From Dudresnaya verticillata (lineage: Eukaryota): 64,000 nucleotides of DNA. Where the stretch lies: positions 1,922,001 to 1,986,000 of the forward strand of contig OZ374562.1 in NCBI GenBank assembly GCA_977862235.1, in the 5' to 3' direction. Shown here in pieces: positions 21,792-52,100 of the stretch. A program made the translations under genes and the position numbers. Under the pieces are notes generated by a model. The model was not told where the DNA came from. It made no database searches and saw only the letters and a list, made by a program, of their open reading frames with translations. Position 1 is the stretch's first letter. Each line of letters starts with the position of its first letter.

Positions 21792-21850
21792 CCGCGTATA
21801 TTGGCGTCGGTGCCAGTGCCGACGGGCCCACTGTGAAGCATATAGTCGTA

Positions 21851-23480: not shown

Positions 23481-23535
23481 TTATAGCTGCTTTCGTCACT
23501 TGGGCTGCCGCTGTAACCGCTCCTGTTGAGGCAAC

Positions 23536-26963: not shown

Positions 26964-29900
26964 TTACTGCTTCGAATATATCGCTATATCTAATGTAGTT
27001 GCATGATACACTAGTCTGATGAAACTAATAGTTGGCTCCTGGTCCGTATTACGCTCCAAAGCACCTGCTGTCTTCGCTTGGTTCACATGCGCAAGGAAGC
27101 GCTCGCGACAAAGAAAATGGACCTCTGCACACTTCCATCCTTTGCTTGGCAGGTGCTCTTCCAAAGAAATCCCATAACTTTCCATAGGTGCTATATTCGC
27201 CTTTAGCAGGGGTAGGACAGCCCCAGGGAACCAGTAGACACGGCTGAACGCATTCTCTGCGAGGCACACATGGTCATACCCACCAGCGACACAGTTTCGC
27301 ATTAGCATTCGAGCATCTCTTTTTGCTGTTTCGATGAAGTTTCTCATCCGCGCTTCAAGCTTCTTCTTCCCCTTCTTCCCCTGATGTTGATGCCGCCGAC
27401 TTTCTTGCCGCCCCTGCGTCGAGAGTTTTGATTCTTCCAAGCGAAAGGGTTGCATGCCCTCCAGACCACGGTAGCGGATAACTGCTCCGATACAAATTTA
27501 GATGCGACCATTCTTTCCATGTTTGCGACAGTCCCTATAGGGACGGGTCAGCTGACGAGAACGTCGGTCTCAAGAAGGATTCCCCTCGTTCCAAACCCAT
27601 ACTGTGTCTCAACTGGTGCAAAAATGCGGCTCGCGTCAATTTGTTCAGCACTTTCTTGAGCCACTGCATACACGATGTCGTATGAGCCCTCAACAGCCGA
27701 AAGCATGGTGGCTCACGTATGAAAAGTCCATCCGTCGAGTCGTCCTTAAGTGCCCTCGTAAATCGGTCAAGATTAACCTCAAGCAGTCCAATGTACGTTT
27801 TACGAAGTAATGTAATCCCCGGGACCACGGAAAGTTCCTTGCAGTATTTGATATGGAATGGAATCATGCCTCTCGCACGTGAAGTGAGTTCTTTTGCAAC
27901 CAAGGTCTCATCAAAATCAGACTGGTCATGGTTGAGCTAACGCTCTATCAGCTTTCCGTGCTCTATCAAGGACGGACCTCCGCTGCTCCCAGATGCAGAC
28001 AAGGCACGGTTGCTTAGCTGCGTTACTACGTGGATAATCTTCGCCACATGTCCACTTCCCTTGATGTCTACATAGTAGAATTGTGGATACTTCCCTTTGA
28101 GAACTTGATTTCTCCTTGAAGCACTCAACTGCTGTACGATTGATATAGCAAACAGAGCAAATCGTATCTACCAAGTTCTTACATAACAAGGGCTTAGAAT
28201 TATCGATAATCTCATGACAAGAAAAAATTCCTTATGGCCGCAATCTGCACAAGGAACAAGCGTTTTTCGATCACATCGTGACTCAATGGAAGTATAGATA
28301 GCCTCGCAAGGAACGTCTTCTCCGTGTCCGCATGGTCTTATAACCCGTGTGGTGTGCCCACAATTGAGCAAAGGGACAATGTCTCTCCGTAGCCTCTCTG
28401 GCACCCTCTCACCAAGCGTTACAACTGCACAGGTCATCTCAAAACTTCCATCGTATGCAATAGTTATTCTTGGAGGCCTTTCTTCACTCCACTGTTGCAG
28501 TGAGTGAACGTTCTCTTCGAGGTGGCACTGTATCGACAAGATGTGTTCGTATAGCGACGATTCGATTTAAACTACTTCCGTGCATTCGGTTTCCTCCTCA
28601 GCCCTAGGGCATGCGGCTCAGTGGAAAGCGCGACTGCATAGTATCTCTGTCACTTCATGATCACAACGTCTTCGATACGTCACTAGTTCATGACAGTCAT
28701 GGACGTCTGCAGCAGTCTCGCAGTAATATGCATCTGCTTCTACGACAAGTCGATCATGACAAGATTCGAGTCTATTTCCGGGCAAGACTGAAGTAACGCT
28801 TCTCTCAAGATAACACAGTACCTTAAATTCAGGAGTACATCGGGCGCGCACGGCCCGAATATTAATCGGACCGGGCAGGTCCTCCATCTCTTGAAGCGTT
28901 GTTAACTGGTGACAGGTACCTGGTTGCAAGCTGTGCCCATGCTCGCACAATAGATATGTGAACAAATCGGTTAATAGCTCCTCATACGTTGCTGGAGGTT
29001 CACCTCGGCGATAGCATTGTGTTTGATAAGCATGCCCACATGTTCGTTCCACACTGACTTCATTTCTGCATTCTGGAAGCGTCTTTGCTGCAATGTAGCG
29101 ACCAAGCCCACTACATTGGAGATTATGAGTCCGACGGCCACATTTTCTGAAGAAATTGAAGGTTGTAGAACATGACGACTGATTTTCTTGATCCGTGGAT
29201 CAACGGGAGGGCTTTCGAACAGAGTATTCTCGTCTATCACAGTTTCCAGAGCATCACCCTTCGAATCCGAACGGTGAACGAACGGCGATGAGGGCAGGTC
29301 TGCACATATACTCCTCACAAGATACGGGCCATGCATTTCATGCCCACAAAGCGGGATTCTAAACACTGAATCCTGTTGGCACAAGCCTTCTTCACGCAAG
29401 CCTAATGCCAGCTCGAATGCCTCGGCACACTGTGTTATCATATTGTGGCCACAGGAACGGCGATAAGTTTTTCTGATGCCGCAGGGAGGCCCCTTGCAAA
29501 CCTTCTGTTGAGGGGAGATGGATGTCTGCTTCCAAGCACTGCTTCAGACGGCCCGTAATGAATTCCGTGTATCACTACCCGTGGACCTCCTCCGGCTGCC
29601 TCACCATCTTGCTCGGCCCATAAGTCCTTAAGTGTGGTCGGCTCATGGCATCATGAGGAGAGGGGATGTGAGCACCGAGGTCGGCGCTTTACAACAGCTT
29701 CCAAGCATTTTGGCACAACGTCAAGGGATAATTCCTCAACCATCTCTGCACAGGATATCCGTGCTTTGCAACCACAAACGCTTCGGTGTTCAACTCTTCT
29801 GCGGCACGAAGGCGTATTCTCTTCCCACTGATGACGGTTGTAGCACGATGGATTGACTGTAACGTGGCCGCATGCCGGATGGATGTAGTTCTCCACTGGT

Positions 29901-30110
29901 TCGCTGCTAGTTGTCCGCTGGTGAAGTTATCTTCCGAGGAAGCCCTGTGAGGCCTCGGGGCATTGACGGGCGTCTGCGATGGCGGTGCACGGGCGCTGTG
30001 CACATAGCTGCAGCGATCGCCAAAGCGGCAGATGCCGGTGGCGCAGCAGGTCGTCGCGGCGCAGGTCGCGTTGGACAAGGGCGCGCGGAGCGACGTGGAG
30101 CGCCTACCAG
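26964..30110 (-). pseudogene. Degraded gene with tandem NF-X1-like (CGH...C) zinc-finger repeats and an upstream CCCH finger-like motif
   Basis: About 10 CGH/CxH repeats across ORFs 29651-29896, 28971-29441, 28618-29052 and 28168-28539; GICRFGDRCSYVH; many frameshifts and stops. Confidence 0.6.
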
Positions 30111-30325
30111 TGTCTTTACAGTGTAGATTTACACTATAGACAGAAAAGGATTCGTATCGGCTCGGCCACACATGGGTCTGACCCCTTTTGGGTACTACTA
30201 TTATTGGGTAGTGGTCCTAATACTACTACTATATCGAAAAAGGTAGTGGACAGTACAGATTACAGTCGACAAAGTACACGGCTTACATTTTGCAACCCCA
30301 CCAGATGCGCCGTTGCCCCTTGTGA

Positions 30326-30831: not shown

Positions 30832-31666
30832 TGTGGCATAGCTGTAAGACCAGCTGTGCCACGCACGCCCAGCTGTAAGACCAGCTGCGCCGCGTGTGCA
30901 CCGCTGTGCGCACGCTGTCAGCCGGTGGCGCCGAAGCCCCGCTGAACTGTAAGGAAGTGCGCAGTGGCGCCCGCGCGTGCACGTGTACGCGTGTGACACT
31001 GAAACTCCCATGTAATTTCTACGTCTATTGTTGTAGTGTACAGCACCGTCTAGTGTAAGCGGCGGTCGAACGCCCGGCTGTCCTGCGCGCCGTGCGCACG
31101 CACTCCGGCGCAGAGCCGTTGAGTGCGTGACACGCGCAGGCGTACTCCGGCGTCGAGCCGTTGAGCACGTGTGGACCGTTTCGCCCACGCGCGCCCCCGG
31201 GTTACCGTTACCCGTACGCGTTGACGCGTGTTGGGGCGCGCCGGCGCACCTCCCGGGTTGGTGCCGCCGCAGGCCCTGCAGTATATCTAGTAGTCGTCCC
31301 TCTGGGCTTGAGTAAACCAGGCAAGCCAGCCTACGCCAGGCTTGCCCCTTTCTGCTTTGGGTTTCTTTCCCAGTCCTTCGCCCTACGGCTTCCCTCTTTC
31401 CCTAGCCGTCTAGGCTTTCCTTTTCCTTTCCCTACCGTTGGCTTCGTGCCGCGCCACGACGGGGACGCAGGGATCCGGCCGCTGCCGCCCGCGTACGGTA
31501 CGCCCCGTGCGCGCTCAGGCTTCGACGCCGTTGATCCGCGACCGTCGACGGCGCGCGCGGCCGACACCACCGCTCTAACACCACCGCTACCACCCTTCGA
31601 CGGGTCGGAGTGCGACTACGAGACCAGCCGCCCTAGACGTCAGTTCGACCTGACGTCTATGCCACA
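30832..31666 (+). mobile_element. Solo LTR, family A, copy 2
   Basis: TGTGGCATAG...CTATGCCACA; TSD ATTCC (30827-30831 / 31667-31671). Confidence 0.93.
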
Positions 31667-32751: not shown

Positions 32752-33287
32752 TGTAGTATAGACGTCGGGTCGATCCGACGTCTAATATCGCTGGTCTGAA
32801 GCCGCCACACAGACCCGTCGATGGGTAGCTGTTGTGTGTGGTAGAGTGGTGTCGGTCGCGTGCGCCCCCGCAGGTGCGGATCGACGGCGTCGATGCCGGA
32901 GCGGGCACGGGGCGTACCGTACGCGGGTAGGCAGCGGCCGGATCCCAGCGTCCCTGTAGAAGGGCGGCACGAAGCCGACGGAAAGGAAAAGGAAAGGGAA
33001 AAAGCTTAGCGAGGCAAGGGGAAAAAGGGAAACCGCCCGCTGGCGTAAGGCAAAGGGATCGAACCCGAAGAGGCTGGGGGCAAGCTTCAGCGCGAGCTGT
33101 TGCTTCCCCGGTTTACTGAGCCGTCGATGGCCGACGGCCTTAAATACCCTACGGTATGTACACTACGGCTACTCTACAGTAGGTGCGCCCCACAACACCA
33201 ACGCGGGAGTTGTGCGAGCGCGCGCCCATACACGTGTCGAAACGTCCGGGTAATGACTACCCGTGGGCGCGCGCGGGGCGTAACGGG
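32752..33287 (-). repeat. LTR C copy 1 (U3 side truncated, more diverged)
   Basis: Matches 45508-46043 with more mismatches than copy 2 does. Confidence 0.88.
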
Positions 33288-34061
33288 TGTAGTATAGCTG
33301 TCAGCACACTATCAGCAGCGGCTGTAAGGTATGCTGGCCGCGCCGCACTGTAATGGTGCACACGATGACGCCCGCTGGCGAGTCGTGATTGGGCAGCGTG
33401 CCCTTAGCTTTTTCGTTGAATTAGTAGCGGTCGACCGCATTGCTGCCGGCAGCGGCCGCGCGCCGTGCCGCACACGGCGCGCCCCTGTGAAGCTCTCCGG
33501 CATCGAGCCGTTGAGAGGGCCGCTGCCCGTTACGCCCCGCGCGCGCCCACGGGTAACCGTTACCCGGACGTATCGACACGTGTATGGGCGCGCGCTCGCA
33601 CACCTCCCGCGTTGGTGTTGAGGGGCGCACCTACTGTAGAAGTAGTCGTAGTGCACATAGTGTAGGGTATTTAAGACCGTCGGCCATCGACGGCTCAGTA
33701 AACCGGGCAAGCAACAGCTCGCGCTGAAGCTTGCCCCCAGCCTTTTCGGGTTCGATCCCTTTTCCTTACGCCAGCGGGCGGTTTCCCCTTTTCCCCTTGC
33801 CTCGCTAGGCTTTCCCCTTTCCTTTTCCTTTCCGTCGGCTTCGTGCCGCCCTTCGACAGGGACGCTGGGATCCGGCCGCTGCCTACCCGCGTACGGTACG
33901 CCCCGTGCGCGCTCCGGCATCGACGCCGTCGATCCGCACCTGCGGGGCGCACACGGCCGACACCGCTCTACCAACCCCAACAGCTACCCATCGACGGGTC
34001 TGTGTGGCGGCTTCGGACCAGCACGTATCAGACGTCGGATCGACCCGACGTCTATACTACA
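33288..34061 (+). repeat. LTR C copy 2 (774 bp, inverted)
   Basis: TGTAGTATAG...CTATACTACA; near-identical reverse complement of 45508-46281. Confidence 0.92.
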
Positions 34062-35940
34062 CTCGCGGAATTCGACTTCCAGATCGAGTACCGTCCGGGT
34101 AGGGTACACCATGTGCCGGACGCGCTGTCCCGCCTGGTGAGGCCTCGACGGCAGCAAGAGGAGGTTGACGACGACGTCCCTACCTACGACCCCCCGGTGG
34201 TCGACGGCCAGAAGGAGGGTGCCTCGAGTACCGAACCCAAGGCACCGTCGGTCTTGCTGACCACGCGGTCCCAAGCCAACGCGTCGACGCGGAAGGCGCC
34301 GGATCGACCGGCTGCAGTGGGCGGCACTGGCAGCGAAGCCAAGGAGCCCTCAGACAGCGACGAGCCACCGGGGCTTGCCGACGACGAAGCCTGGGACGAC
34401 TGCGACGACGTCGACCTTTTCGACCTTGGCCGCATCGACGCGAGCCAAGAGCCGACGGACCTCACCCGGGTCGAACCGGTGAAGCTCCCTTCACCACTAA
34501 CCGTCGAGGAATTGGTGGATGCGCAGCGGCGCGATTCTTTTTGCCAAACAGTGTTGGCACGGCAGTCCCGTCGACGGGACAGCCACTTCTTCGAAGACGA
34601 GGGCGGGCTCCTGTGCCGGCGTCACCCCGTCATCTCCTCGCTGGAGCAAATAGTGGTGCCCGAAGCGCTACAGCCGCGGCTTCTCACGCTCGCGCACCAC
34701 TCCCTCCTGGCTGGCCACCCTGGCCAGAACAGGATGTTCTACACGCTCCGCGAGAGCTACTACTGGCCACACATGTCAGCGGACATAGCCATGACAGTTC
34801 GGAACTGTCGGCACTGTGCCAGGAGCCGCATACGCTTGCGGAGGTCCCTTCATCGGTTGAAGTTGTTCCCGGCCACGAGGCCGCTCGAGTCGCTCGCGAT
34901 CGATATCCTAGGGCCGCTGCCCAAGACGAAGTCAGGAAAGCGTCCTGCTCGTCATGACGGATCGATTCACGAAGCTGACTCAAGTAGCGCCGCTGCGCAC
35001 CATCACAGCGTACCACGTCGCAGTGGCATTCTGTGAGAGGTGGATCTTCCACTATGAACCACCAAGGTCTCTGTTGTCCGACAACGGGAAGCAATTCACC
35101 TCTAAGTTCTTTCAGGCCGTGTGCCGCTACCTCGGACTGAACAACGTGTTCACGTCCGCCTACCACCCACAGGCGAACGGTCAGGTTGAGGGCTACAACC
35201 GGACCGTCATGGCCATGTTGATGAATTACATCAACGATCACCAGGACGACTGGGATTGATACGCAGCGGCGTTGACGTATTCCTACAACTGCCATGTCCA
35301 TCGCACGACGCGGACGACACCCTTCAGCCTCGTGCTGTCCCGGCCGCCGCCGGAGTTCACTAAGTTTCATAAGGCAGCGGCCAGACCGAAACCTAGTGAG
35401 GACGTGCGCGCGGACTTCCTCAAGCGGCTCGACGCCGCTTCGCAAGCGCATCGAGCGCTCTCGACAAAACGCAGCGGCGTTACAAGAAAGTATGTCATTG
35501 TCAGAAAAGTCAACTCCCGCATTCGAGCGGGATACTACGTCTTCATCGCCGCGAGCGACGGGGTTAAGAAACCCAAGAAGCTCCAGAGCCCAGCGATAGG
35601 GCCCTACCGCGTGCTGCTTAACGACAAGCGCACGCTGTTCATCGACAGAGGCGGCTTGGTCGAACGCATCGCAGCGGACCGCGCCGTCTACTGTCCCCCG
35701 CCGCTGTGGGAGGATACTGCGCAGCGCAGCGCCTACTTACCCACCACTGAGGAACTCGCGTCCGAAGCCGTCGATGGCCCGCGGTTCGTGGTAGATAAGG
35801 TCCTTGACCACGGTACAGCCGACGATGGCACGCTCGTGTTCAAGGTGAAGTGGACCGGCTATCGCAAGCCGACGTGGGAGCCACGTTATCATCTCCCCGA
35901 GGAGATGGTGAGCCACTATTTCGCATCGCAGCGGCGGTGA
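34062..35940 (+). pseudogene. RNase H end, integrase (HHCC, DDE) and chromodomain, frameshifted
   Basis: LAEFDFQIEYRPG...DALSR; AHH...GHPG...YYWP...CRHC; IDILGPLP; SDNGKQF; YHPQANGQVE; FKVKWTGY..PTWEP. Confidence 0.93.
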
Positions 35941-37304
35941 AACACCAACCGGCTCGAAGCCCTTCGCTCCTCCTCATAACCCCTCGGCGGGGCGCCTCGC
36001 GCTTGAGGAGGGGGCCGCAGGCATTCGTTGCCTTTTTGCAAAGGAAATCGATGCCTCACCCTACCCTGCACTGGGCACCGAGCCCAGACAGGTCACCCTT
36101 GCGCCAGCAGCAGCGGCAGTAGCGCAAGAGGGGGCAGCAGAACGCTGATTCCGGCGCATCGATGCGCGGAGGGCAGCTGCCAGCTAACCAAGCCTGCGGC
36201 AGCGGCCCCGGGCTGGTTGCACGCACTCGCAAGCGGCGAGGAGACGCAGACGGTACCTCGCCTTCGCGCGTGACAGGCGTCGACGCCTCACGCACGCAAG
36301 GTAAGGGGCGCTGACCAGCGGCTACCGAAGCCGCTCACCAGCGCCGCGCACGCGGCGCTACCGTCGCTCACTCCAGGCAACCCTACGCGCCAGCCGCAGC
36401 GGCTGCTGAGCGAGGAGAGGTCACACCAGCGTTAGTGCGGAGCGGGCGCGTCGACGCGCCCAAGGCCGTCGCTGTCGAAGCGAAGTGGTGTGGGACAAAG
36501 GGCAGCGGCCCGATCGCCACTTCACTCGGGTGCACCGGAGTGCCGTTGCACTCGATGTGCAACGGCACCCCAAAAGCGAGCGTCACTTTTGGCGTGCGCC
36601 TCGGCGCGGGGCGCACGCAGCGCATCGAGCGCGAAAAGGGTTCCGGCTACAGTACGTACTGTAGCCGCGGGTCGGGAAACACCCAACCAGGCCAGCGGGC
36701 CGGAAGGCAACAGCCAATGCAAGGGGTTGCGAAAAATCCACAGCCAACGATTGGCTATAATTTGGGCGCAAACCGCCTCCCGGTGGGAGCAACAGCAGCG
36801 GCTGATCGAGCAGCCAGAAGCGGCGCGCCGCCGGCAAGTGGGTGCGAGGCAGCGGCCTCGCCAAAGCTAGCCGTCGCGGCACCAGGCGTCCAAGACGGGC
36901 GCGCAAGGGCAGCCACTGTGGTCTCCCCCATGCCAAGGCGGCATGCCGCGCAGCGGCGCCGGGGCACCACATGGGATCGGCACGCTTGCCTATTGCCCCT
37001 GAGCAGCGGCTCACGCAAGCCCCGCACCGAGACGACCGCTGTCGTGACGCAGTGGCGACGCACGCGGGCTCGATGCGCGCGCGCGCGCAGCACTCACCTT
37101 GGGCAGCGGTCCGACGTGGTGAGCTGCTGCGCCAGCGAACGCTCTCGCCACAAATAGGTTCGCATCGACGCGGCCCGAAGCCATATCCCACCCCTTTCCC
37201 TTTTAACATGTCTAACGACGCAGCGGCGTAACTGGACTAAAAGGCGCAGCGGCGCTCTAATCGCTGGGTGCCGCGGCACCCGCGGATACTATGCGTCGAT
37301 CGCA
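35941..37304 (+). repeat. Hairpin-rich non-coding array of alternating GCAGCGGC and GCRTCGAYGC motifs (~100-nt period)
   Basis: GCAGCGG(C) at 36110, 36199, 36396, 36502, 36795, 36849, 36950, 37003, 37103, 37220 and 37246; TCGA palindromes at 36156, 36277, 36448, 37162 and others. Confidence 0.65.
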
Positions 37305-40207
37305 CTATTGGGCAACGTTGACCCCGGCCCCCGCTTCCGGCTGAGCAGTCATCGACGACGCACAGCCAGGAGCGAAGGGGTCATAACCGGTCGCCTCGGC
37401 CGCAGCGCGCGGCTGAGTTAGCGCGGCAGCGCCCGCCGCGGTACCCGACGCGTGGTACACCGCAGCGGCGCCAGCGGCAGCGGCCACTAACCCAGCAGGG
37501 CTCACTTGCCCCACTGGGGGACCATACCCCTGCGGCATGTAGCCCGGGGGGACGGGCGCAGCGGCGCCCGGCTGCTGTGGGACTCCACTGCCCTGCACCA
37601 CCATTGACGGGGTGTAGCCGGAAGGGCCCCAGGGGAGCATCTGGCCAGCGGGCCCGACGGCATAAGGTAGCATCGGTTGCTGCGCAGCCTGCGCTGGCGC
37701 ATAGGACGGCATCGGCTGCTGCGTCGGCGCCAGCATCGGGGGCGGCTGGTACTCCTCTCGTGGCCGCTTCCGAGGGACCCGACGACTGGGGATGAATGGG
37801 CAGCGCGCCTCAACTCTCCCTGCAGTCGTTGCGCATCGTGCGCAAACCTGTCCCGCTCGGTGCGGTAGCGAAGGGCGATGGCGTTCGCAGCGGCGAGCTC
37901 GTCATGCGTTCCCGTTAGATGGGCCGCAAAGGCGGCAACGAGGGTGCGCAGCGGCGCTTCCTCACCGAACTGTACCAGTGCAGCGGCGCGGCGTACATTT
38001 TGGTCGCTCCAGAGGCTCGCTGCCATCGGCACATCGAGCGCATCGGTTGTGGGCGGCGGCACATAGGCAGCCACCGCCATCGATGGCGGTGGGCCATACC
38101 TCACCGCCTGCCTCGACGGCGTATAGGCAACGGGCAGCGGGTCGACTGCTGCCTGCTTCTCCTGACCTCAGTCCATGGCAGCGGCCGGGGGAGGTGGTGC
38201 CACAGCTCGAGGTGCTGGTGCCGCGGCACGCGGCACCGGTGGCAAGTAGGGCTCGGCCTCCGAGGCCATAACGGCAGCGGCCGACTTGGAAGCCCCACCT
38301 AGGCCCCGACGGGCGCGCGGCTTAGCGGCCCGCTCGACGCGGGCCATGTCCGCCATCGAGGCGTAGCCACGATCCTTCCGCGGCGCGCGTGCGCGTTGGA
38401 TCTTGTGAAAGGTCCCCGCCACTGGGTTGACCCCGCAAATGAACGCATCGACGCGTGTTGCAAAGTGGCGGCGACGGGTGTGCTTCTCTCTGGCAGCGGC
38501 CACGAAGCGCGTCGTGTTCAGCAGCTGCTTTAACTCGAACGTCACCGAAGTGTTGTCCGGGCCTGCCGCGCCTCGGAGGCGTGGGAAGCCCGGGCGCCCG
38601 CTGCGCCACAGTACATCGAGGTACACCAAAATGCGGTCGTCGAGGACCCAGCAAATATCCTTCGATAGGATGTCGGAGGCGTAGCGACGCCCCACCTCAA
38701 AGGCATACTCGTCGGAGCGCCTAGCGAGGAGCTCTCGACGAACTGCCTCCTTTCCCGCCGCGGCGTAGTGGAAATATCGCTCGATGCTGGGCCACGGGAC
38801 GATCATGCCAGCGGGCACGTCCCGGTGCGAGTACCACTCCGCGGAGGGAAACCACGACGCGTCGAGCGCCGGGTGCAAGCGGGCACCCGTGGTGATGAGC
38901 CCATCACCGGGGGCGCGGCAGGTGGCCCAGTCCCGCTCCCCCATGCACAGCCCGAGGATGCGGCGGGCGCAGTTGGCATCGGCCAGACCGCGCGCCTCCT
39001 CCGGCGTCTCCTCGATGGGGACGTCCCTCAACCAATCCAACGAGGCCGCGAGGGGCTTGTGGGACCCATCGACGGGTTTCACAAAGAGGGCTTCGGCGCC
39101 CTTATCCACGATCAGCAGCTGCTTGATCGTGGTGACGAACGAAACGTCACACGGTAGGCCGTTCGGTACGAGCCATACCGGCGATGCGGGCATGAAGGCG
39201 TTGTTGGCAGCGGCCCCGCCATCGTCGCTCGCATCTGCCACGCGCAGGAGACGTTGGACGTCAATCCTTTGCACGGGCAACCGACGTCACTGGTCCAGCG
39301 GGATCTGGTGGGGCGGTGCCTCCCACGCGAAGACAGTGGGAGGCAATGCGGCTGCATTGGGCACCGCGACACCGAGTCGCTGGGGCCCAATGGTCAGAGA
39401 CACCCCTCGCATGGTGATCACCGGCAGAGGGGGAGCCATGGCAGCGGCCGATGACGACTCAATGGCAGCGGCCACGCTTGTGCCAGGGGCGGCCGACGCC
39501 CCTGCTCCGGGGTCGCCTTGCGCCGATGCGCTGAGGCCCCGGCGGGGCACGAATGGAGCCGCAGCGGGCGGCATCCTGCTCCCCCTTGACGCGGAGGCCG
39601 TCGACGACCCCGTCAGATCAAGGGCACGAGCCACGGGTGGCGCATCGACGCGCGGAGCAGCAAAGGGCACAGCGACTGGAGCCGCCTCCTCTGGGCATGG
39701 GGCGGCAGCGGCCGCCCCACTCCGGTCCAAGCCACCCAAACCTCGCAGCGGCGTGTCTTGGGTGGTCACCTCGACCTCCTCGTAGCTCGGCAGAGGTCGT
39801 GTAGCCTTACCCCGGGCCAGCGCAGCGGCTGCTGGCTCCGGAGGCACTCGGGCGGGAGACGTGTCAACCGCAGCGGCGGGACGCATCTCCGATGTCTTAG
39901 CGGGCGCAGCGGCGCCCGCTCCAATTTGGTCAGCAGCTGCTGGACCAATATGCGCAGCGGCGCCGACCCCAGCCGCCGGAGCAGCAGCGAGGCCACTGGG
40001 CACCGAAGCCGCCACCGCAGCGGGCGGTGGGCATGGCAGCGCAGCGGCGCTTGCCCCCAGCGCATCCTGCGCCTGGGGTTGTGGGGCATCTGCCACCGCT
40101 TCCGCCGGTGCAGCCGTCGATGGCGCACCAGCGGGCAGCGACGGCGTGGTTGCGGGCGCCCCTTCGTCAGGGGCGCCCCGGGTGGCAGACGAGCGCGTCT
40201 TGGCCAT
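37305..40207 (-). pseudogene. Antisense accessory protein of chromovirus C (~900-960 codons; two TGA stops, one frameshift); function unknown
   Basis: ORFs 39287-40207, 38168-39280 and 37502-38104 share one frame; Ala/Pro-rich ends and a globular core; candidate TATA (ATATAA, minus) at 40371-40376. Confidence 0.75.
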
Positions 40208-40489
40208 ACCGCACGTCGACGTGGGCACTCGCTTCGAGCGAAGGGGGCGGAGAAGGCGTAGCACGATACACACACGACAGCGGTCACTGGTGTGCTGAAG
40301 CGTGTGGGCGAAGGGGGGATCGTGGAGAGCGATACCCGCAACCTCCCCAGCGCCGACTCCGCGTTGATCCTTATATGCGCAGCGGCGCAGACGGGCGGGC
40401 ACGCGCATACACCGTCGACGGGCGCGCGTGCCAATCACTGTCAACGGCCACTCGGGATTTCCATCGTGGCCCCGGGAAACCTCAACGGC

Positions 40490-43135
40490 CGATATAGGGA
40501 CGCAGGGTTGTGATCGACCACACCACTGCAAAGCACTCGCGCTCCGTGGCCGAGTAGTTTCGCTCCGCTGAGCTTAGTGAGTAAGACCAGTACCCAACGG
40601 GGTGTAACTGGCCGTCCTCTTGCTCCTGGAGCAGGGCGCATCCGAGCTGGTACGCCGATGCGTCCGTGTCGAGGACGTACGGCTTGCCCTCGCGCGGGAG
40701 CCGTAGGATAGGAGGCGATAAGAGTGTCGCTCGCAGCGTCTCGAATGCCTCTAGCGCCGCTGCGCTTGGATTATCGAAATCCACATCCGCATCCTTGCGG
40801 GTCATATCCGTCAGCGGACGAGCGATCTTCGCGAAGTTCCTGACGAAGCGGCCGTAAACGTTACACGCCCCGAGGAACGACCTCACCTTCGTTAGGGAAG
40901 TCGGGAACTGCGCATGGCGGAACGCGTCGATGCTTGTCTTCGCCATGCGTAGTTTCCCCGGCTCGATCACGTGACCGAGGTAGTCCACGCGGGACTGGAA
41001 GAAGTGGCACTTCTTCAGCTTCAGGGACACGCCGCCCTTGCGAAGCGGAGTCAGCACGCGGTCTAGGTGACCGACGTGCTCCGCGATCGACCGCGAGAAT
41101 ATGATCACATCATCGAGATAGATCAAACAACACTGCCATCTACCTCCGCTGAGTATGATGTCCAGTGCACGCTGGAAAGTCGCGGGGGCCCTCTTCAGTC
41201 AGAAGGGCATCCGCAGGTAGCGGAACGTCCCTAGGAACGTCGTGAACGTGGTCTTATCCCTGTCAGACGCTGCGACAGGGATTTGCCAGTACCCCGCGTT
41301 ACAATCCAGCGTGGAGAAAATGGCAGCGTCGCCAAGACTGTCGATACAGTCATCCATGCGTGGGAGTGGGTACGCATCGCTCAGGGTTTTGGTGTTAAGA
41401 CGTCGATAGTCCACGCAAAACCTGAGCGTGCCATCCTTCTTGGGCGCCAGAACGACTGGCGATGCCCACTCCGACGTGGCGGGTTCGATTACCCCTGCCC
41501 GCAGCATGGTCTCGACCTCGTTCTGTACGAGCTTCCGCATAGCGGGGCCCTGTCGATAGGGCATTGAGCGAATCGGCCGCGTGCCGGGTTCCACGTCGAT
41601 GTAGTGTTGCGTAGCGGCAATCGTGCCGAGCGTCCCGTCCCACATGGACTGATGCTTCCGAAGCATGGTGAGGACTTCTTCGCGGGTGACCTTGTCTTCG
41701 ATAGACGAAAGGTCCACCTGCGACTCCCACTCCTCGACGGACTCGCTTTTCTCCGCCGCTGCGGTCGCTGCTCCTTGGAGCTTTGTGGGCTCGGGGCCCC
41801 TTGCCATCGACGGCGTGACTGGGGGGTCGTTGCTCCCCTTACCCCTGGGCCGCTGCCCTTTGGGGGGAAGGGTGGTGATATTCATCACCCTTCCGAACTC
41901 CTCCGCGACGTCGCGGTCCGGGGTTATTAGGGCGACTGGGTTGCGGACCGCATAGCCGACCACGGTACCCTTCGGTAGGGTCCGGGCCTTGTCAGTCCAG
42001 TTGCCCAAGATAACCCCGAAGGGTCGCCCCGACTCGATGTCGTGCACCCCGTTGGTCAGTCTCACGCCGTGGCGGAACTGCAACGAGGGTTTGGGCTCCG
42101 TGTGGACTAACCCACTAGCCCCCGACGTCACCGAGACGAGCCTCTGCGAGTAGGCTGGGACAACCACCTGCCTAGCGAGGCGTATGGTGTGGGTATCATG
42201 ATCCCAGTCGAGGAGCTCCCGCTGGTGCTTCTTCGACAAACCCTTCGATGGGTTCTTCGGCTGCGTTGCCGGACCGGTTCCCTCGCTAGGTTCCTGCGGC
42301 TGAGAATGGGCACCGAGCCTCCTTTCCTCAGCGTCAGCCTTCTCAACTCGACGTCGATTCCGCGCACGTGCGTGTTGATAAACTGCGTGCCTATCAGTAC
42401 GTCGACCGCGAGCGTGTCGGCGACGATGAAAGGCACGCGGAACGTCGTGTTCCCTAACCTCATCGAGAGGTGGACGACGGCGGACAGCCTCAGCGGAGTC
42501 TTGTCGGCGCCTGCCAGGCGTGGCGCGGAGTCGATCTCTGACGCGTTTTCCTCCCAGCCTGCGGGCAGGGCACCTCGAGCGATGAGGTTGTACCCGGAGC
42601 CAGTGTCCACCGCGATGGTATCATAACCCGCGGGTCCGCACCGAGGGACCCGGACACTCGGTAAATCTCGGAGGACAGGAGGCATACGTACCCATCGGGG
42701 GTAGTGGCCGGCTCTGCGTCGATGCGTGGAGCCCCGGTACCCTCGCGTCGAGCGTCGGGTACCGCCTGTCCCGCCGTTGGGGAGCTGCGCCCTTTCCGCC
42801 TGGCCTGTCGCTTGCGTCGACGCCGCGGCGGCCAGGGTGGTTTGGTACGCGTCGCCCACGACGTCCCGTCGACCGCGACGTCGCTCGTGTCCTTCGAAGC
42901 GCCGCTGCGCTCGACGTGGGGGCTCGCTGCCCCCAACGCCGTCGAAGGTGGAAGGGATGGTGGGTCTGGTGTTGGACAAGACGGTGCGCGCGACCGCACG
43001 AGCGGCGCCGCCTTTATTCTTTTTCCGGATCGACCCGGTCAGAAATATCATCGGAATCCGAACTTTCGTGCTCGATTCCGATTGGGTGTTTCGTAACCCC
43101 TGAGGCGCCTCGCATCGATCGCGGAGGCGTGTCAA
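40490..43135 (-). pseudogene. pol: aspartic protease, reverse transcriptase and RNase H (frameshifted, cut in RNase H)
   Basis: VDTGSG; WASPVVLAPKKDGTLRFCVDYRRLN; YLDD; LDTDASAYQLG; ERNYSATERE. Confidence 0.95.
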
Positions 43136-45440
43136 AAAGGAGAGGGGAATCGCTTCCCTGCCCGCTGGCTGTCTCTCCCTTGTGCCGCGCGTCGAGCGCT
43201 TGCGGAAGCCACTCGTCGGCGGTGAGGCCTGTGTGCTCCTGCACCGTCATAACTGATCGGAGCAGTTCGCGGCGCGGGTCAGCCCTCGGAGGCGTCGATG
43301 CCTGAGGTTGACGGCCAGCGGGCTCATCAAAGCCGACCCGCTTATCGCGCAGCAGGAACCGTGGTGCGTCGCCTTGGCGGTACTCGCGGCGTGGGTCTCG
43401 ACGATCCCCGCGGTACCCCTGCGGCTCTCCGCGGTACCTTGGTGCATCCATGCGCTGCGGGGGACCTCTCGCGTCGAAGCGTCGGTCCCCACCCCGCGGC
43501 GCGTCGTAGCGCCGCGCGGGGTTCCTTGTCCTTGCGCCCGCTGGCGCGCGCTCGTCGATGAGCTGTTGGAGCATATTGCGCGAATGCGGCTGCGTTTCCA
43601 TTCGATGGTTGCAGTTCGCATACGCGCAGTACGTCTGCTGTTCCTTCGTGAGGTACGGGCACGAATACATGATGTGCCCGACCTCACGGCAGAACCAGCA
43701 GATGTACCATCCCTGTCGATCAGGGATGACTGCGCGTGCCATCGCCTCCTGCGTTGGAGTGAGCGGTGGTATGCGCTTGGGTAGGACTGCGTCGATGCGT
43801 CCTGTAATGTCGAGAGTCTCGACGGCCTCGGCCGACCCGGCTGTCGATAGCGCGGGTGCGACCATCACGGGTTCGAACCCGTCGGCGTCAGGGTCCACCA
43901 GCATTGTGCTGTTGATAGCAACGTCCCCGCTGGGATAGCTTGGTGGGCCCTCGATGAGCAGTGTACGGCCGCTTGCCGAGCTGCCACCTGACCTGCCGCG
44001 CCCCGAGGTGTTCGTAGGCTGCGCTGCCTTTGCCGAACGGGCGCGGTAGGTTGTGCCCTCGCTATGGGCAATCCGACGAACGGTACTAAAATTGGTCTGT
44101 TCGACCATAGGCAGCTGCCTGACCTTCTCCGCCACTGCGGGTCTTGTCGTGGGCAGCAGGCCCCGAAGGAACGGATGCGTCAAGTTCTCATCGGAGTACA
44201 CGCCAGCGCAGGCGTCCGCATACCCTTCGAGGCGACTAGCAAACTCAAGCTCGGACTCGGCGTCCCTCTGCTTGGCGGTGGTCAGCCGGTCATGGGCGTC
44301 TGCGATGACGTCGTCCGTGACGAACCTCTCGACGAGGGTATTGACCACCGAGGCCCAGCAGGGTGGGGTGCCGCGCTGCGTTGTGCGCATCCCAGAGAAC
44401 AGGTGACTCCAGTACACCTGCGACGCGGTTCCATCGAGGAACCAGGACACCACACGCGCCGCTGCGCCTTCGGATAGTCCAACGCCATTGAATGCTTGGC
44501 GTAGCTGTTGAAGCACACTAAGCAGGCGAATCGGCTCCTTGCCGTCGAACCGGTCGAGCCGGGGCATCAGGGCCTTCATGCGGCTGATAATCTTCGCAGT
44601 GTTGCCGCTGCACACCTGCTGTTGATTGTCCCGCTGATCTACGTCATCGAGACGGTACGAGCGGTAGTCGATCGCCTTAGCGAACTCTGGCACCAACGTG
44701 GTTAAAGGCTCGATGCCTGCCATGAGTGGGCCCCAATGCCAATAGGCAGAGACGGGGCCCTCGTGCTGTTGGGGGGTCGGTCCCCCCTTTGTGTTTTGCC
44801 CGTCGAGGGCTTGTTGGAGCAACCTGGGGTCGACCCCGTAGAACGGATTGGGGTCCCGACTCGGATGGTGCGACCCCGCCGCACTCCTTGGTGGAGATGG
44901 CGGTGGTGAAGGAAAGCGATGCCGGGCTCGTTGCTCGGCAAGTATGGCAGCGGCCAATTCTTGAACTGCACCCGCTGGTGACTGCGGTCGCGGAGTAGAG
45001 CGCTGCGCCGACGACGGGCCTGTAACCCGCTGGCGTTGCCGCGTCGGCGCGCGCTCTATCAACTCAACGCGGCGGCGTAGCTCATCGAGGAGCCCCTGTG
45101 ACCGGGTTATTCCGTCCTCGATGGACGCCAAAGGACCGCGTCGAAGCGTGTCCAGGTCTTGCTGGCCGTCGGCCTTCGCCTCAGCTATCGAAGCTGTAAG
45201 GTGGTCGTACACCTCGGCTAGCGAGTCCATGGTCTCCTCATACAGCAGCTGGAGGTCGGCCACCGAGACCAGACTCCCGGCGAGGGCCTTTTGCAGCGCG
45301 GCCCTCCGCTCGAGCCTCACATCGTGTAGAGGAGTACCTGAGACGCCGATGGTACTCAGTATTGAGGTGCGACGCGTCGCGTACTCAACTTTTCCGGCAG
45401 CGGCCGATGCGGCAGCGGCCGGGTCAGGAGGACTCGACAT
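43014..45440 (-). CDS. gag: Gag polyprotein (808 aa)
   Basis: Follows LTR and PBS; FDGKEP...; Q...ES...FASRL; CWFCREVGHIMYSC zinc knuckle. Confidence 0.88.
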   Translation of the reverse strand: MSSPPDPAAAASAAAGKVEYATRRTSILSTIGVSGTPLHDVRLERRAALQKALAGSLVSVADLQLLYEETMDSLAEVYDHLTASIAEAKADGQQDLDTLRRGPLASIEDGITRSQGLLDELRRRVELIERAPTRQRQRVTGPSSAQRSTPRPQSPAGAVQELAAAILAEQRARHRFPSPPPSPPRSAAGSHHPSRDPNPFYGVDPRLLQQALDGQNTKGGPTPQQHEGPVSAYWHWGPLMAGIEPLTTLVPEFAKAIDYRSYRLDDVDQRDNQQQVCSGNTAKIISRMKALMPRLDRFDGKEPIRLLSVLQQLRQAFNGVGLSEGAAARVVSWFLDGTASQVYWSHLFSGMRTTQRGTPPCWASVVNTLVERFVTDDVIADAHDRLTTAKQRDAESELEFASRLEGYADACAGVYSDENLTHPFLRGLLPTTRPAVAEKVRQLPMVEQTNFSTVRRIAHSEGTTYRARSAKAAQPTNTSGRGRSGGSSASGRTLLIEGPPSYPSGDVAINSTMLVDPDADGFEPVMVAPALSTAGSAEAVETLDITGRIDAVLPKRIPPLTPTQEAMARAVIPDRQGWYICWFCREVGHIMYSCPYLTKEQQTYCAYANCNHRMETQPHSRNMLQQLIDERAPAGARTRNPARRYDAPRGGDRRFDARGPPQRMDAPRYRGEPQGYRGDRRDPRREYRQGDAPRFLLRDKRVGFDEPAGRQPQASTPPRADPRRELLRSVMTVQEHTGLTADEWLPQALDARHKGETASGQGSDSPLLFDTPPRSMRGASGVTKHPIGIEHESSDSDDISDRVDPEKE

Positions 45441-45493
45441 CCTTTACTTCGATCGCGTCGATGCGAGAAGTACTTGGGTCTCGACGACTTCTA

Positions 45494-45506
45494 GGTCGGG
45501 AGACCA
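45494..45506 (-). other. Primer binding site (TGGTCTCCCGACC)
   Basis: TGG-initiated sequence 1 nt after the 5' LTR end; cognate tRNA not identified. Confidence 0.65.
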
Positions 45507-45507
45507 G

Positions 45508-46281
45508 TGTAGTATAGACGTCGGGTCGATCCGACGTCTGATACTTGCTGGTCCGAAGCCGCCACACAGACCCGTCGATGGGTAGCTGTTGGGGTTGGTA
45601 GAGCGGTGTCGGCCGCGTGCGCCCCGCAGGTGCCGATCGACGGCGTCGATGCCGGAGCGCGCACGGGGCGTACCGTACGCGGGTAGGCAGCGGCCGGATT
45701 CCAGCGTCCCTGTCGAAGGGCGGCACGAAGCCGACGGAAAAGAAAAGGAAAGGGGAAAGCCTAGCGAGGCAAGGGTAAAAGGGGAAACCGCCCGCTGGCG
45801 TAAGGAAAAGGGATCGAACCCGAAAAGGCTGGGGGCAAGCTTCAGCGCGAGCTGTTGCTTGCCCGGTTTACTGAGCCGTCGATGGCCGACGGTCTTAAAT
45901 ACCCTACACTATGTGCACTACGACTACTTCTACAGTAGGTGCGCCCCTCAACACCAACGCGGGAGGTGTGCGAGCGCGCGCCCATACACGTGTCGACACG
46001 TCCGGGTAACGGTTAGCCGTGGGCGCGCGCGGGGCGTAACGGGCAGCGGCCCTCTCAACAGCTCGATGCCGGAGAGCGTCACAGGGGCGCGCCGTGTGTG
46101 GCACGGCGCGCGGCCGCTGCCGGCAGCAATGCGGTCGACCGCTACTACTTCAACGAAAAAACTAAGGGCACGCTGCCCAATCACGACTCGCCAGCGGGCG
46201 TCATCGTGTGCACCATTACAGTGCGGCGCGGCCAGCATACCTTACAGCCGCTGCTGATAGTGTGCTGACTGATATACTACA
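45508..46281 (-). repeat. 5' LTR, family C (774 bp)
   Basis: TG...CA termini, followed by PBS and gag. Confidence 0.93.
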
Positions 46282-46708: not shown

Positions 46709-49668
46709 CTAACCAGCAATGCTGGCGAGAAGGCAGGCGGCGGCGTTTTGCGGAACGAGGACAGCGGCAATGTGAGAGAAACAACGCAAGCGCGAGGTGC
46801 TTCGAGTCTCATTGAATCGAGTCGCTCTCGCGTCAGCGATGCGCGTAAAATACTGCCGGGCCTTCTGTAGCGATCCACCTGTGGTGTGTATAGCGAGAGG
46901 CAGCAGAGAGTACCTGTCTCCCAAGTCGGACATTAGGGCAGAGTGGCGGGTGACTTTGCCGGCGGCAGCCAGGTCAAGTGTCTGGGCTGGAGAGAGTGCC
47001 GTCGCGTTGACCCGTGCCGATGTAAGGGGATGCGGGATTACCACGCCAATGAGGACGCGGTCGCCTTGCTCCCCCATTGCGGCAATGTCGGGGCGTGTGT
47101 TGTGGACGCTGCCGGTGTCGCGGGGTTCGACGACAGGGTGTCAGGCAGCCTTGACGAGACTGGCGGCTGCTGCTTGCACGACAGCGTCGTGGCGGCTGAT
47201 GCGTGGGGATCCGTGTGGGCACACTAGGGCGTGCTTTTCGTATACGTCCATTGTCTCTTGACAGCCAGCCCGTCCGAATTTCTCCAGCGCGTTGGACAGA
47301 GGGACGCTACAGTAGAATTTGAACCATGTTCTGAATTCACGGGGAGATATGCTGGACTGGAAGGCCTTACAAGAAGAACAGTTTAGCCAGTCCTTTGGGT
47401 CAGGAAGGTTGAGGCACTTGCGGATAGCGATCGTGCGGATGTTCCCGGGCGGAACGCTTGCTGTTATACCCGCGTGAGCGGCGGCGGCCAGCTCCTTCTG
47501 TGAGGGGAAATGTGCTGGCGTCCAGAATACCAGAAGCCCCAGCTTGTCCCGCACGGAATTGTCAGGGCTTCAGAGAGATTCCCAACGGTCATAAGCGTCA
47601 CGCGTGTCCGGTAATGTGCTGAGCAGGTCATGGTCAGAGTGTCCTTGTAAACGAGCAGAGGTCTGATTTGTTTGTGCGACGGAGGCAAGGAAGGCGCAAG
47701 GTGAGAGCGTGACAGCGGAAGATATACCGATGCTGAGATTCACAGGGGTTTTCTGGGGTGCTCTTACTGGCAACTGCAGCTCTTTCCAGGTCGTGGGCGA
47801 CAAAGACCCATCAAGAATGTTGCGGAAGCACTCATAAATGCGCTGGTCCAACTTTCGACAGCCGTCGAGGGCCAGTCGCAGCGGTATAAGCCTCAGCAGG
47901 TACATAACGCGACTGAGACCGTAACAGTACAGGAGGAGAAAGTAAGCGACCTGTGTGTCGTCGAGGAACGCGATGGCTTCAAAGAGCTTGTCCATGTCGG
48001 TCACGTGGGAGAGGAAGAATTGCTCAACAAACTCGTCTGTACCAAGGGGTGCGTTGAGCACCGTAGTACCGTCGCCATATTCCTGTGTGACAGAGTCTGG
48101 GTCAAGAGAACGGGAGCCAGCGGACGGCTCGGACGGCCACCAGACGCTGCAATTGGACAGGTTCAGATCGAGCCCTCGGGCGCGGACAGTATCGGAGTCA
48201 AGGTATTCGAGGGTACGTGCGAGATATTTGTGCGGGCCCACAGCATAGCCGTCATCCAGGTTAAACGCCAGAAGGGACAGTGGCTCAATGTCAATATCCC
48301 CTGAATGCCCGAGGTGTCGTCTGCAGCGATATCTTGTGTAAACTCTGAGAGGGCGCGTAACACTGGCTGAAGCACAACAGAAAACTGAAGCGACCCCAGG
48401 GGGTCGCCTTGCTGAACCCCTAGGATGCTGAGGAGCAGATGCCTGTCGTACCATAGGTTGGCCGGAGCTGTTGCATAGCAGTATTCCACCCACACTGCGA
48501 GGTTCAGGAAGTGTTCTCGGACACCTTTGAAAAACTCGGTTCGACTGATAAGGTTGAAGGTATTAGAGAAGTCTACCTTGAGCGGTACTGACTGCGATGA
48601 GCTCTTGTATTTAGAGGTGAGGGCGCGTAGAGAGTGGAAGATAGTTGCGCATCCAGCCGGCGACGAGACCCCGAGTTGCAGCTTCGCGAAGTACACTTCT
48701 GCATCTTTCGAGACACGGGACATAAGGCAAGAGCCTACAAGACGGCGCAGAGTTTCCCCAACCGCGATGGGGCGGATATCGCCGTTGGGCTGCGCGAGAC
48801 CGGTTAGTGGGGCTCCAGCGAGCCATGGGGCGAGCGATGGGGGCCCGCGGCCCGTGGAGAGCAGATTCACAATCCTGGCGAGGCCTCCTGCGAAAGGAGT
48901 CGCAGAGGCCGGGTTGGGAGCTGCAAGAAACTCGGCAAGATGGTTCGGACGGAGACCACTTCCGCCCCAGCTGATGGTGTCGAGAAGCGCCGCACGAAGG
49001 CGGTGACGTCCTCAATACTAGACTGTGGAGCTTCCGGTTGCTGTGTGTCCGGGGGTATCGCATGCGTCTCGGCTAGTGCAACGGCTTGCAAGGGATACTT
49101 AAATCTCAGTCGCTCCGTGCGTTCATCCGTGACAGTGGGGATTCGGGCGGCTGTCAAGGCTTTGGCCGCTTTTCCAAACGCCCCTTCCCGTGCGAACGAG
49201 ACGGCCGTCGGGCATTAATGAATATTTGAGATGCTGAGGATACGGGCGTTGAGCTGTGGGAGGTCACAGACAATCCTAGCGCGTTCTGCCAAAGTTGCAC
49301 GTACTGTCCAGCTTCCCATAGACGTAGGCGCGCCCGGATCCCCTTCACTGTAGCGTTGCCAAGCTGTGTACGTAGTGCCTTGGTCGGTTGGGCCAGGATG
49401 GCCTTGGGGAAGAGCAAGAGTTGCGTGAACCCTTGCATGCTGCACGATTCTGCTTCGTCCATTCCCGCACGGTGGGGTGACGCGCAGAAAGGTGCGCTAT
49501 TGCCTTTAGCTAGTTTAGTTAAAGGCTCTCTCGGATCTTCCTGCTCACGTTGACGGATAGTCGAGATGAGCTGATCAAAGCACTGAATTGCACCTGGACG
49601 GATCCGGAGGGAATCTTCTGAACCCACAGCTGCCGCCATATGCTCGAGGGCTGGTACCTCACCCTGTA
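46709..49668 (-). mobile_element. CRE-like non-LTR retrotransposon (RT plus C-terminal restriction-like endonuclease), degraded and 5'-truncated
   Basis: IRPIAVGETLRRL, DFSNTFN, GVQQGDPLGS, NLDD; then C...HALVC...RHD and P.AI.T.G RLE-type motifs. Confidence 0.88.
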
Positions 49669-49764
49669 CACATTATAACTATCATTTTCGATGGGCTCGT
49701 ACCAGCATATTTATAAACTATGGCCTCCTCTTGCATTGTGAATGATGTCGTAAATATTTCCCAC

Positions 49765-52100
49765 CTAGAACGGAAACTCTGGTCTGCTGTCCTCGTAGCA
49801 CACAGCTACGAAACTGTTTCGATAGAACTGAAGTTCTGTTTCATTGATTAGCTCTCTGTGTACATCACCAGGCAGAAACTCCAACTCGTGATCCGCTAGT
49901 CCCTCCTTGCACTTGCCGTTGGTTTCCATGACGGTGGACAGATCCCAGTGAAATGGCTCCAACCTGTCGCGGTAGATTTCGTCCCGCAACTCTGTAAGAT
50001 TCTCAACCATTTTTACGATCGCAATGCGCGCCTCTTCTGAGGGAATGAGGTCACCAACCTCTTTCATGTCCGGAAGGGCACATGCTTGTGAGGGGGCGTC
50101 TTCGAAAATCAGGGGGAAGGTAATGAGCCCCTTTTGACCAGTCTTCGCGCCCAAGGGCTTCCATTGGTCATGGAATTGAACTCGTGCCTCGCACGCTGTT
50201 CTGAAACGTGCACCTTGATTTTTCCCTGAAACGCGGAAGAAGCGTACGAATCTGTAACGGGGAAACGCTTTCACCTTCCCAATGCACTTTGTGTTCTCGC
50301 ACAGACCAGAGACGTTTGGGATATGTCGTAATCTGGCTACATGTAGCTCTGGCGTGTAAGATTTGCCCAACGCCTCAATGAGAGCGTCCAATGTAACCGC
50401 ATCCCTGGTTTCCAGTCTGTTGGAGGTGCAGCTAAAGGTCTGATCAATATCGGAATGTGTATGTCCCACTGGTAGAAATGAAGCCTGCACTTCCTGAAAG
50501 ATACCCCACGCGACAAGACGTTCGAGGTGCGAGAACATGAAACGATTATTATTCGCTCTAGTGCAGTTACCCATTTGCTGGCGTAGAGTGGGCTGAACAT
50601 CCCCACGACCATACCGTATGCTCGGCGAACGATTAATTGTCTCTATAACGTGATTGGCACTTCTCTCATACTCTCCCGTCCTCATGAAAGGGCACAGATG
50701 CTTCGTAGGTCCATGCTGAAGGACACCCACCAGCTTCACTTTGATAGCGTGTTTGTCAACAGCGTTCGTGTTGACAACAAAGTGTGGAAGACCAAAGGCT
50801 GACTGGTCCGCCCCGTCCACAACAATTGAACAGTATTCGTCAGGGAACATTATTGCCTTCTCTGCGGTTTTCTTGTACTGCACGCGCCCCATCCACACCA
50901 TGGCCATGTGCTGCCGGCGGCGCATCCTGAAAGTCTGAGCAGCCTTTTTTGTCTGTATCTGCCTCGGCAAGGCCGGCATGAACATCCTCGCATTCAGTAC
51001 ACTTCGTGAACCGCCGAACCATTCGCACCCTTATATGCGCACAATATGACCTCCACGTTGTGTAGAAGTAGCTTTCTGTAGGAGGTGTGTCATTTGGATA
51101 CAACACTTTCTGATCCGTTACAGAGTTCTCATAGACAGTCTTTCTGTCGAAGTAGGGCAGATGCAACTCCGGTCTATCCGGCATGCGGTCAGCAGTTGTC
51201 TCAGGAAGGCGCTCAATGAAGGAAACGATTCTGTCCCTGTTCTCACAACTCACGTCATGAGTTCTCAAATTCTGGAAACCCGAGGATCCGCTAAACGTCT
51301 TAACCGATGTTTGCAAATCCCTGAAGAAACCGAACACCTTCTCCAATAAAGTGTAACAAACAGGCTAGCCATTGAATCGACATACCTTGTCAGATTGCAG
51401 TAGACGAGACAGGTAATCACGCCTCTCATTCTGTTCCATTATTAAAACCCGGCGAGCTCCAGCTTTTAAGTACACCTGCTCGCAAGTCATAAAGCATTTC
51501 TTCGTAGCGCAACATTTCTTGCGCTCCCAGTCTTAAGTACCTATATTTTTCAGTGCTGCCTTGCCTCGACGCATCAGCGCGGAATTTCCAGTTCTGGACT
51601 TCTTACGAGACCGTGTGTGAAAGCGATAAATACGCTTTTCGGTGGACCCTATTGGGCTCGTTACGTGATTCCGGAACATCGTTCCGTTCCGTGTCGGGCG
51701 TTACTGCCTTTCTTTGAGTCTTCATCTGAGCTGCCTCCCTCGCTTCTTATATATAGAGATTCACCATGTCCTCCATCTGATATGCGTCCCAGCAGTGCTC
51801 TCGTTTAACCATGTGATTCAGAATCTAGGGAACATCCCCTGCAGACTGATACTGAAACGGGTTCGGTAGCAATTCTGCTCCTGGGAGACAATGGAGACTA
51901 TGCACCACAACCCACACTTCGTCATCGCTTTGTTGTGAGTTGAGCGACCGTCCCTCAATAGCGGTGCAAAATCGCTCACTAACATCCGCCATGTCTGTGT
52001 GTGTCAGGAGCAGTGTAGCTCGAGCCACAGCTCTTCCACAGAGTGTGAACGACACACGAGCACCCGGCTTCAGTTGAGAAAGCGTGCAACTGGCCATCAA
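49765..52100 (-). pseudogene. Sola-like DDE transposase
   Basis: LHLP...FYTTW...FTKCTEC; IVVDGADQS; NC...NNN; FLPVGHTHSDIDQTFS. Confidence 0.7.

Follow-up and report, generated by a model that had tools for sequence, protein, structure and literature searches.

Antisense accessory genes in two Ty3/gypsy chromodomain retrotransposons of Dudresnaya verticillata likely belong to one uncharacterised protein family

Two chromodomain elements and their antisense genes

The window, a 64,000-nucleotide stretch of contig OZ374562.1 from Dudresnaya verticillata, is packed with mobile elements, two of which carry an extra open reading frame behind the chromodomain end of pol. We refer to these elements as B and C and to their extra genes as ORF B and ORF C. 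The features of element C and its accessory gene are as follows.

32752-46281, minus strand: element C, a Ty3/gypsy chromodomain LTR retrotransposon with a 5-base target duplication (one mismatch), internally rearranged
45508-46281, minus strand: 5' LTR of element C, 774 bases, TG...CA
43014-45440, minus strand: gag of element C (Retrotrans_gag PF03732, E 7.8e-6)
40482-43246, minus strand: pol part with protease-like, RT and RNase H sections, broken and truncated within RNase H
34062-35940, plus strand: part of the inverted block coding for the end of RNase H, the integrase (H2C2 finger) and the chromodomain (35785-35901)
33288-34061, plus strand: inverted full LTR, matching the 5' LTR at 759 of 774 bases
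32752-33287, minus strand: 3' LTR remnant, the last 536 bases, with 502 of 534 aligned bases as in the 5' LTR
37305-40207, minus strand: ORF C, the antisense accessory gene in element C, about 967 codons when read end to end, ATG at 40207
38399-39403, minus strand: globular domain conserved in ORF C, about 335 codons, common to 10 homologs at 26-42% identity
38399-38845, minus strand: part of that domain aligning with the B family (137 profile columns)
37799-37900, minus strand: heptad-like helical stretch, where four longer homologs have a coiled-coil-like tail
37758-37772, minus strand: basic nuclear-signal-like motif at the start of the Pro/Gln/Tyr-rich tail of ORF C (pattern match only)
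40370-40377, minus strand: TATA-like box 170 bases upstream of the ORF C ATG (pattern match only)

Element C has the features of a chromovirus, namely a gag gene, the order PR-RT-RH-INT, a C-terminal chromodomain and LTRs bounded by TG...CA, with the pol order being restored only when the inverted block is read backwards. The inversion comprises the block 33288-40480. The inverted full LTR ends on one side near position 238 of the 3' LTR and on the other within the RNase H coding region, no target duplication is common to its two ends, and roughly 100 bases of RNase H together with the polypurine tract are missing from the element. The rearrangement has the look of an integration of two LTR ends at separate sites, or of an assembly error. 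Just after the RNase H break, at 40441-40480, a 9-base direct repeat flanks a short hairpin, an arrangement that is frequent at repair joints. Element C also stands out in composition, with a GC content of 60-69% against a background near 50% and 55 copies of a GC-rich 8-base word, of which the remaining counted regions have 7; this may reflect either acquisition from a host with higher GC or a binding site. LTRs of a third family, approximately 71% like those of element C, are found at 30832-31666, as a solo LTR with a 5-base target duplication, and at 1252-2192, with internal duplications.

ORF C today reads in the same direction as gag-pol and opposite to the integrase and chromodomain of its own inverted block, and was therefore antisense in the native element. 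Within that block it follows the integrase and chromodomain, which puts it past where pol ends and before the 3' LTR, with the polypurine tract lost in the rearrangement. Two in-frame stops, at 39287-39289 and 38168-38170, and a frame change near 37770-37810 break the gene, and its homologs align across the first of these stops. A preliminary description of this DNA had set the protein at 38168-39280; this interval does lie inside ORF C, although it takes in the middle piece only, as the conserved domain begins upstream of the stop at 39287-39289.

Element B is less complete, and the following parts can be recognized.

17630-18479, minus strand: 3' LTR (17630-18467) and polypurine tract (18468-18479) of element B
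18430, inside the 3' LTR and on the opposite strand to it: TATA-like box 310 bases before the ORF B ATG (pattern match)
18740-21608, plus strand: ORF B, the antisense accessory gene in element B, interrupted by a solo LTR
19403-20241: solo LTR from the same family as element B, inserted in ORF B, with a 5-base target duplication and 801 of 838 bases as in the 3' LTR
20565-21005, plus strand: part of ORF B matching the block shared with the C family (ends approximate)
23608-23730, minus strand: chromodomain remnant of element B pol (PF00385, E 2e-9), 43% identical over 47 residues to that of element C

Nothing of the pol of element B survives in the window but the chromodomain, which with the polypurine tract and the LTR is all that is left of the element. 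The order is chromodomain, ORF B, polypurine tract and LTR, and ORF B is antisense to the chromodomain. Both accessory genes thus run opposite to the chromodomain of their own element, as had been proposed, and the low-complexity Pro/Ala-rich N-termini and tails ascribed to both products can be seen in the translations. The solo LTR within ORF B was inserted in the opposite orientation. Between ORF B and the chromodomain, approximately 1.9 kb (21609-23535) holds degenerate minus-strand frames that match nothing else in the window and are possibly a second decayed gene. The LTRs of elements B and C share short matches only (the best of 26 bases), and because their LTRs are nearly unlike and their chromodomains are as divergent as listed above, we assign the two elements to different families.

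The remainder of the window contains MULE transposase, non-LTR reverse transcriptases, a Plant_tran (Harbinger-type) nuclease, DUF7869 and a further reverse transcriptase (3562-7485, 13075-15848, 47570-51030 and 62580-63500), a 17-base tandem array (3241-3397), and minus-strand frames with a CCCH finger and cysteine-rich repeats (26964-30216), which perhaps derive from a decayed gene of the NFX1/helicase type.

Homologs and probable relatedness of ORF B and ORF C

Both accessory proteins have homologs, and all of these are unnamed. For ORF B, 3 homologs were found among 1749 candidates at 36-45% identity, two of them from Agarophyton chilense, which point to a red alga as the likely host. One homolog, P0001, is intact (547 residues) and matches both halves of ORF B, which are therefore parts of one gene. 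Word-index searches with ORF C, at near and longer lengths, returned no match among 7550 and 7992 candidates, and phmmer against 1.84 billion representatives gave 12 matches at E up to 0.001, of which two (a repeat protein and a phage S74 chaperone) were dropped and 10 kept. The resulting families are shallow, with 4 sequences for B and 11 for C when the window proteins are counted, and searches with the locus in metagenome, viral and prokaryote collections found no relative. The window itself contains a single copy of each element. We infer that the homologs also sit in retrotransposons.

Each subfamily has a conserved, mainly helical domain of about 330 residues, in which Gly, Pro, Trp, Arg and Asp/Glu make up most of the conserved columns. 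In both conserved cores, GC content is higher at third than at second codon positions. A six-cysteine cluster is present in none of the 11 C-family and none of the 4 B-family core rows, and one Cys is conserved in the C family. The tails differ, being coiled-coil-like in the C branch and a small two-helix module in the B branch, and a tail-to-tail profile comparison gave P 0.82. The coiled-coil-like tail lies at the end of four long C homologs; a profile built from the tails of the longer homologs did not single out the ORF C piece at 37799-37900. A tail-profile match at 28974-29543 (E 0.023) was taken as chance, since the region is cysteine-rich and has no LTR context. The two-helix module forms the C-terminal end of the B family (P0001 residues 502-541, pLDDT 61-77), and its counterpart in ORF B, at 21393-21500, was placed by eye only. 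A HeH/SAP-like identity of the module is no more than a lead, because its Ish1 match is faint (E 0.092) and there is no fold match.

The preliminary description had proposed that the two proteins are distant homologs on the basis of four colinear blocks. All four blocks exist and are colinear when mapped onto both ORFs.

B 19235-19264, C 39143-39172: block 1, YLPGGLPVDV / LVPNGLPCDV, 6 of 10 residues identical
B 19316-19336, C 39050-39070: block 2, NDRHRPL / DGSHKPL, 3 of 7 identical
B 20598-20624, C 38783-38809: block 3, GFLVELPNV / GMIVPWPSI, 3 of 9 identical
B 20691-20792, C 38609-38710: block 4, ungapped, 6 of 34 identical

Comparing the two proteins directly does not separate them from chance. 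The best BLASTP match between B and C has an E-value of 0.087 and falls on blocks 1 and 2, blocks 3 and 4 are not found, and tBLASTn stays at chance level. In shuffle tests over 16 score settings, ORF C against ORF B or any of the 3 B homologs gave z-values of -0.8 to 1.5, and the B-family profile against ORF C alone gave P 0.27. Ranking the open reading frames of the window leads to a similar picture, with ORF B placed 4th of 574 under the C-family HMM (E 1.8) and ORF C 174th of 574 under the B-family HMM. Likewise, the B-family HMM singles out only 2 of the 11 C-family rows.

Comparison at the level of family profiles supports the relationship. HHalign of the untrimmed alignments gave P 0.009 over 79 columns, and of the trimmed cores P 4e-4 with a probability of 35% over 137 columns, in a register that pairs blocks 3 and 4 as originally described and runs on to a short aromatic-Asp-Pro stretch that precedes the domain's end. 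The score of 36.7 compares with 15.4 ± 2.7 for a block-shuffle null and was reached by 0 of 92 shuffles, and the reversed alignments scored 13.8 and 18.3. When both window proteins are removed the score is 27.6 against 15.5 ± 2.8 (0 of 100 shuffles, null maximum 26.4), with a probability of 5%. These block shuffles do not keep long-range helical order and may therefore flatter the match somewhat. A C-family HMM built without ORF C recognizes P0001 at P 8.8e-6 and P0003 at 5e-5 (0 of 300 shuffles each), P0002 at 0.0011 (1 of 300) and the second half of ORF B at 0.0013 (0 of 300), and gives no score to the first half (35 of 300).

The cross-family pairs agree on a common register. Among the 32 pairs that cover one anchor (the other 12 of 44 lack it), 16 have their best local alignment there, compared with 0.7 expected at the fixed anchor and, for any register, a mean of 3.5 and a maximum of 10 over 200 nulls. 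Of the 4 pairs in which ORF C itself is a member, none has its best alignment at this anchor. Columns of Gly, Pro, Glu and Trp agree between the families with the right spacing.

As for the blocks, 3 and 4 are recovered by the family profiles in the register first described. Block 1 is recovered weakly, with the N-terminal halves alone giving P 0.048 over 13 columns and a forced global alignment also placing it. Block 2 is a chance pairing, as the forced global alignment pairs the block of C with a different stretch of the B family. Distant homology is thus upheld at family level, by a profile match at P 4e-4, scores beyond all shuffles and half of the informative pairs in one register, and the profile alignment that had been suggested as a check is significant at moderate strength. 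Judged from these alignments, ORF B and ORF C quite likely represent one old, unnamed family of antisense accessory proteins. The link between them is moderate, rests on the C-terminal half of the domain and is one that a database search would miss.

Domain identity and predicted structure

No known domain was matched in any of the libraries tried (Pfam, PHROG and PDB), in agreement with the view that the family is uncharacterised. Pfam gave no match for B, C or the scanned homologs, PDB sequences and phage records gave nothing meaningful, and in PHROGs 1 of 14 members matches one unnamed family, again without a meaningful result. PF04195 (TRP28/Transposase_28) does not match B, C or the 3 B homologs at E up to 10, nor the 12 C matches at E up to 1, and no known nucleic-acid-binding domain was found in the ORF B/C family.

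AlphaFold2 models reached a mean pLDDT of 47 for C (14 alignment rows) and 37 for P0001 (5 rows). These separate, low-confidence models place the elements of the shared block in the same order, helices and then a two-strand hairpin, which backs the relationship weakly at best. Searches with Foldseek against PDB and with VIA-align (both models), and against BFVD (C), gave no match at E < 0.001 or Z of at least 5, and because the models are of low confidence these blanks say nothing on whether the fold is new. The Atlas gave no usable match for P0001.

Known counterparts and possible role

An antisense gene between pol and the 3' LTR is a layout already known from plants and from Boty, of which ORF B and ORF C are a variant. 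PMC7264820 and PMC11963269 describe such genes (aORF-3R) in plant Tat/Retand elements, including maize Grande gene23, rice RIRE2, Silene Retand and the TRP28/Transposase_28 (PF04195) proteins. In Grande, gene23 has a promoter of its own and its product is nuclear, and a regulatory function is proposed for ORFs of this kind (PMC7264820); Retand TRP28 is predicted to bind DNA (PMC11963269), and sunflower aORF proteins are discussed as silencing modulators (PMC11728184). ORF B and ORF C resemble these genes, as described there, in position and orientation, in the long region between pol and the 3' LTR, in the large and partly disordered protein and in the suspected regulatory role, with the coiled-coil-like tail as a further likeness in the C branch only. 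They differ in their elements, as the plant examples in those papers are non-chromoviruses of flowering plants, whereas B and C have a chromodomain integrase, a likely red-algal host and no PF04195. Outside plants, an antisense extra gene behind pol, brtn, is described for Boty/BcGypsy1 of Botrytis cinerea and Sclerotinia in PMC7264820 and PMC8365987, and by that description this non-plant Ty3/gypsy gene is a similar case. The literature that was covered, including PMC6338049 and 10.1101/2025.02.11.637652 but with Repbase, REXdb, supplements and subscription papers outside that scope, contains no account of a gene of this kind in the LTR elements of red algae. PMC7264820 and PMC11963269 treat it as an open question where antisense ORFs behind pol come from and what they do.

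One possible hypothesis, to which we assign about an even chance, is that these broken antisense genes behind the chromodomain end of pol belong to one family and encoded a soluble nuclear factor that sustains expression of the element. Under this hypothesis, transcription would start at an antisense promoter lying either beside or within the 3' LTR, for which the TATA-like boxes 170 and 310 bases upstream are candidates. The product would be a soluble nuclear protein acting on the element's own DNA or RNA and keeping the element expressed, perhaps against silencing or in export of the genomic RNA. Basic nuclear-signal-like motifs occur in 5 of the 13 pieces examined and are lacking in 8, and it is mainly by analogy that we infer a nuclear regulatory role. 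CERV of the C. elegans element Cer1 and the retroviral accessory regulators Rev and HBZ offer precedents for a nuclear accessory protein acting on the RNA or transcription of its own element; CERV, which comes from a spliced Cer1 mRNA, exports Cer1 RNA (PMC10309623). The parallel is one of analogy only, as no sequence or fold link connects these proteins to ORF B or ORF C.

Were B and C homologous and the protein cytoplasmic, it could have served as a scaffold, a particle co-factor or a movement helper. The large size, the long disordered arms and the coiled-coil-like tail would suit a scaffold, and the patchy occurrence of nuclear-signal-like motifs is compatible with such a location. We consider this improbable, since the few antisense proteins encoded between pol and the 3' LTR for which PMC7264820 and PMC11963269 give data are nuclear or predicted to bind DNA, and a separate antisense transcript would fit a regulator better than a part of the particle.

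Still less probable is that B and C have nothing to do with each other, each gene having been captured on its own at the same favourable location, and that similar helical patterns produce the match between them. Chance-level results in all pairwise tests, the ranks of 4 and 174 among 574 frames and the differing tails are what separate capture would predict, and unrelated genes do occupy this position in fungi and plants according to PMC7264820. What speaks against it are profile scores that no shuffle reached, with or without the window proteins, the 16 of 32 pairs in one register and the agreement of the Gly, Pro, Glu and Trp columns.

That the domain is a highly diverged enzyme, such as a NADAR/YbiA (PF08719) ADP-ribose hydrolase countering host defence, is very doubtful. 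This identity was suggested by the Atlas, where the matches listed for ORF C are all NADAR-like or unnamed at a score of 0.76, which is below the Atlas chance level. ORF C alone also resembles YbiA over 36 residues (E 0.013) and scores P 0.011 against a 10-sequence NADAR HMM. The likeness is absent at family level: the profile-profile comparison with NADAR gave P 0.76 for C, 0.92 for C without the window protein and 0.57 for B, none of the 10 other members tested scores, and the NADAR-like residues of C are not conserved in the C family. We rejected NADAR because neither family profile matches its profile and no other member scores; it is also missing among the fold matches, though the model is poor.

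Slightly less credible again is the reading in which the antisense RNA is what matters, through self-silencing by double-stranded RNA, and the protein is incidental. Such transcripts have been proposed as regulators themselves (PMC7264820) and both window copies are broken, but pol is broken in the same copies, and conservation of a protein domain at only 26-45% identity would be needless for a function at the RNA level. Least probable of all is an env-like or membrane protein, which the position between pol and the 3' LTR would allow and to which 19-residue hydropathy peaks of 1.68 and 1.71 in two of seven homologs might point, since both ORFs lack the sense orientation of an env gene, neither window protein has a hydrophobic stretch of the membrane-anchor type (peaks of 0.84-1.47 in a hydropathy scan, in keeping with the earlier doubt about a TM helix or env-like protein), the homolog peaks lie at differing places, and the poor model has no viral fold match.

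The preferred reading, of one family encoding a soluble nuclear factor, can be carried considerably further. In its widest form, which we think unlikely, an antisense gene of ancient origin would be common to the whole lineage of red-algal chromoviruses, and its product, with a new helical fold and swappable tails (a coiled coil or a small DNA-binding-like module), would be a self-encoded anti-silencing or RNA-export factor, equivalent in red algae to VANC or Rev and partly responsible for the growth of seaweed genomes through LTR elements. If the more restricted reading is true, a domain has been kept by two element families with nearly unlike LTRs, and a gene of this kind would be heritable with its element over long times. 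Red-algal elements would then form a third lineage with such a gene besides plants and fungi, with conserved residues that can be put to the test. The family may also serve as an annotation marker, as databases list such proteins as host gene models without a name.
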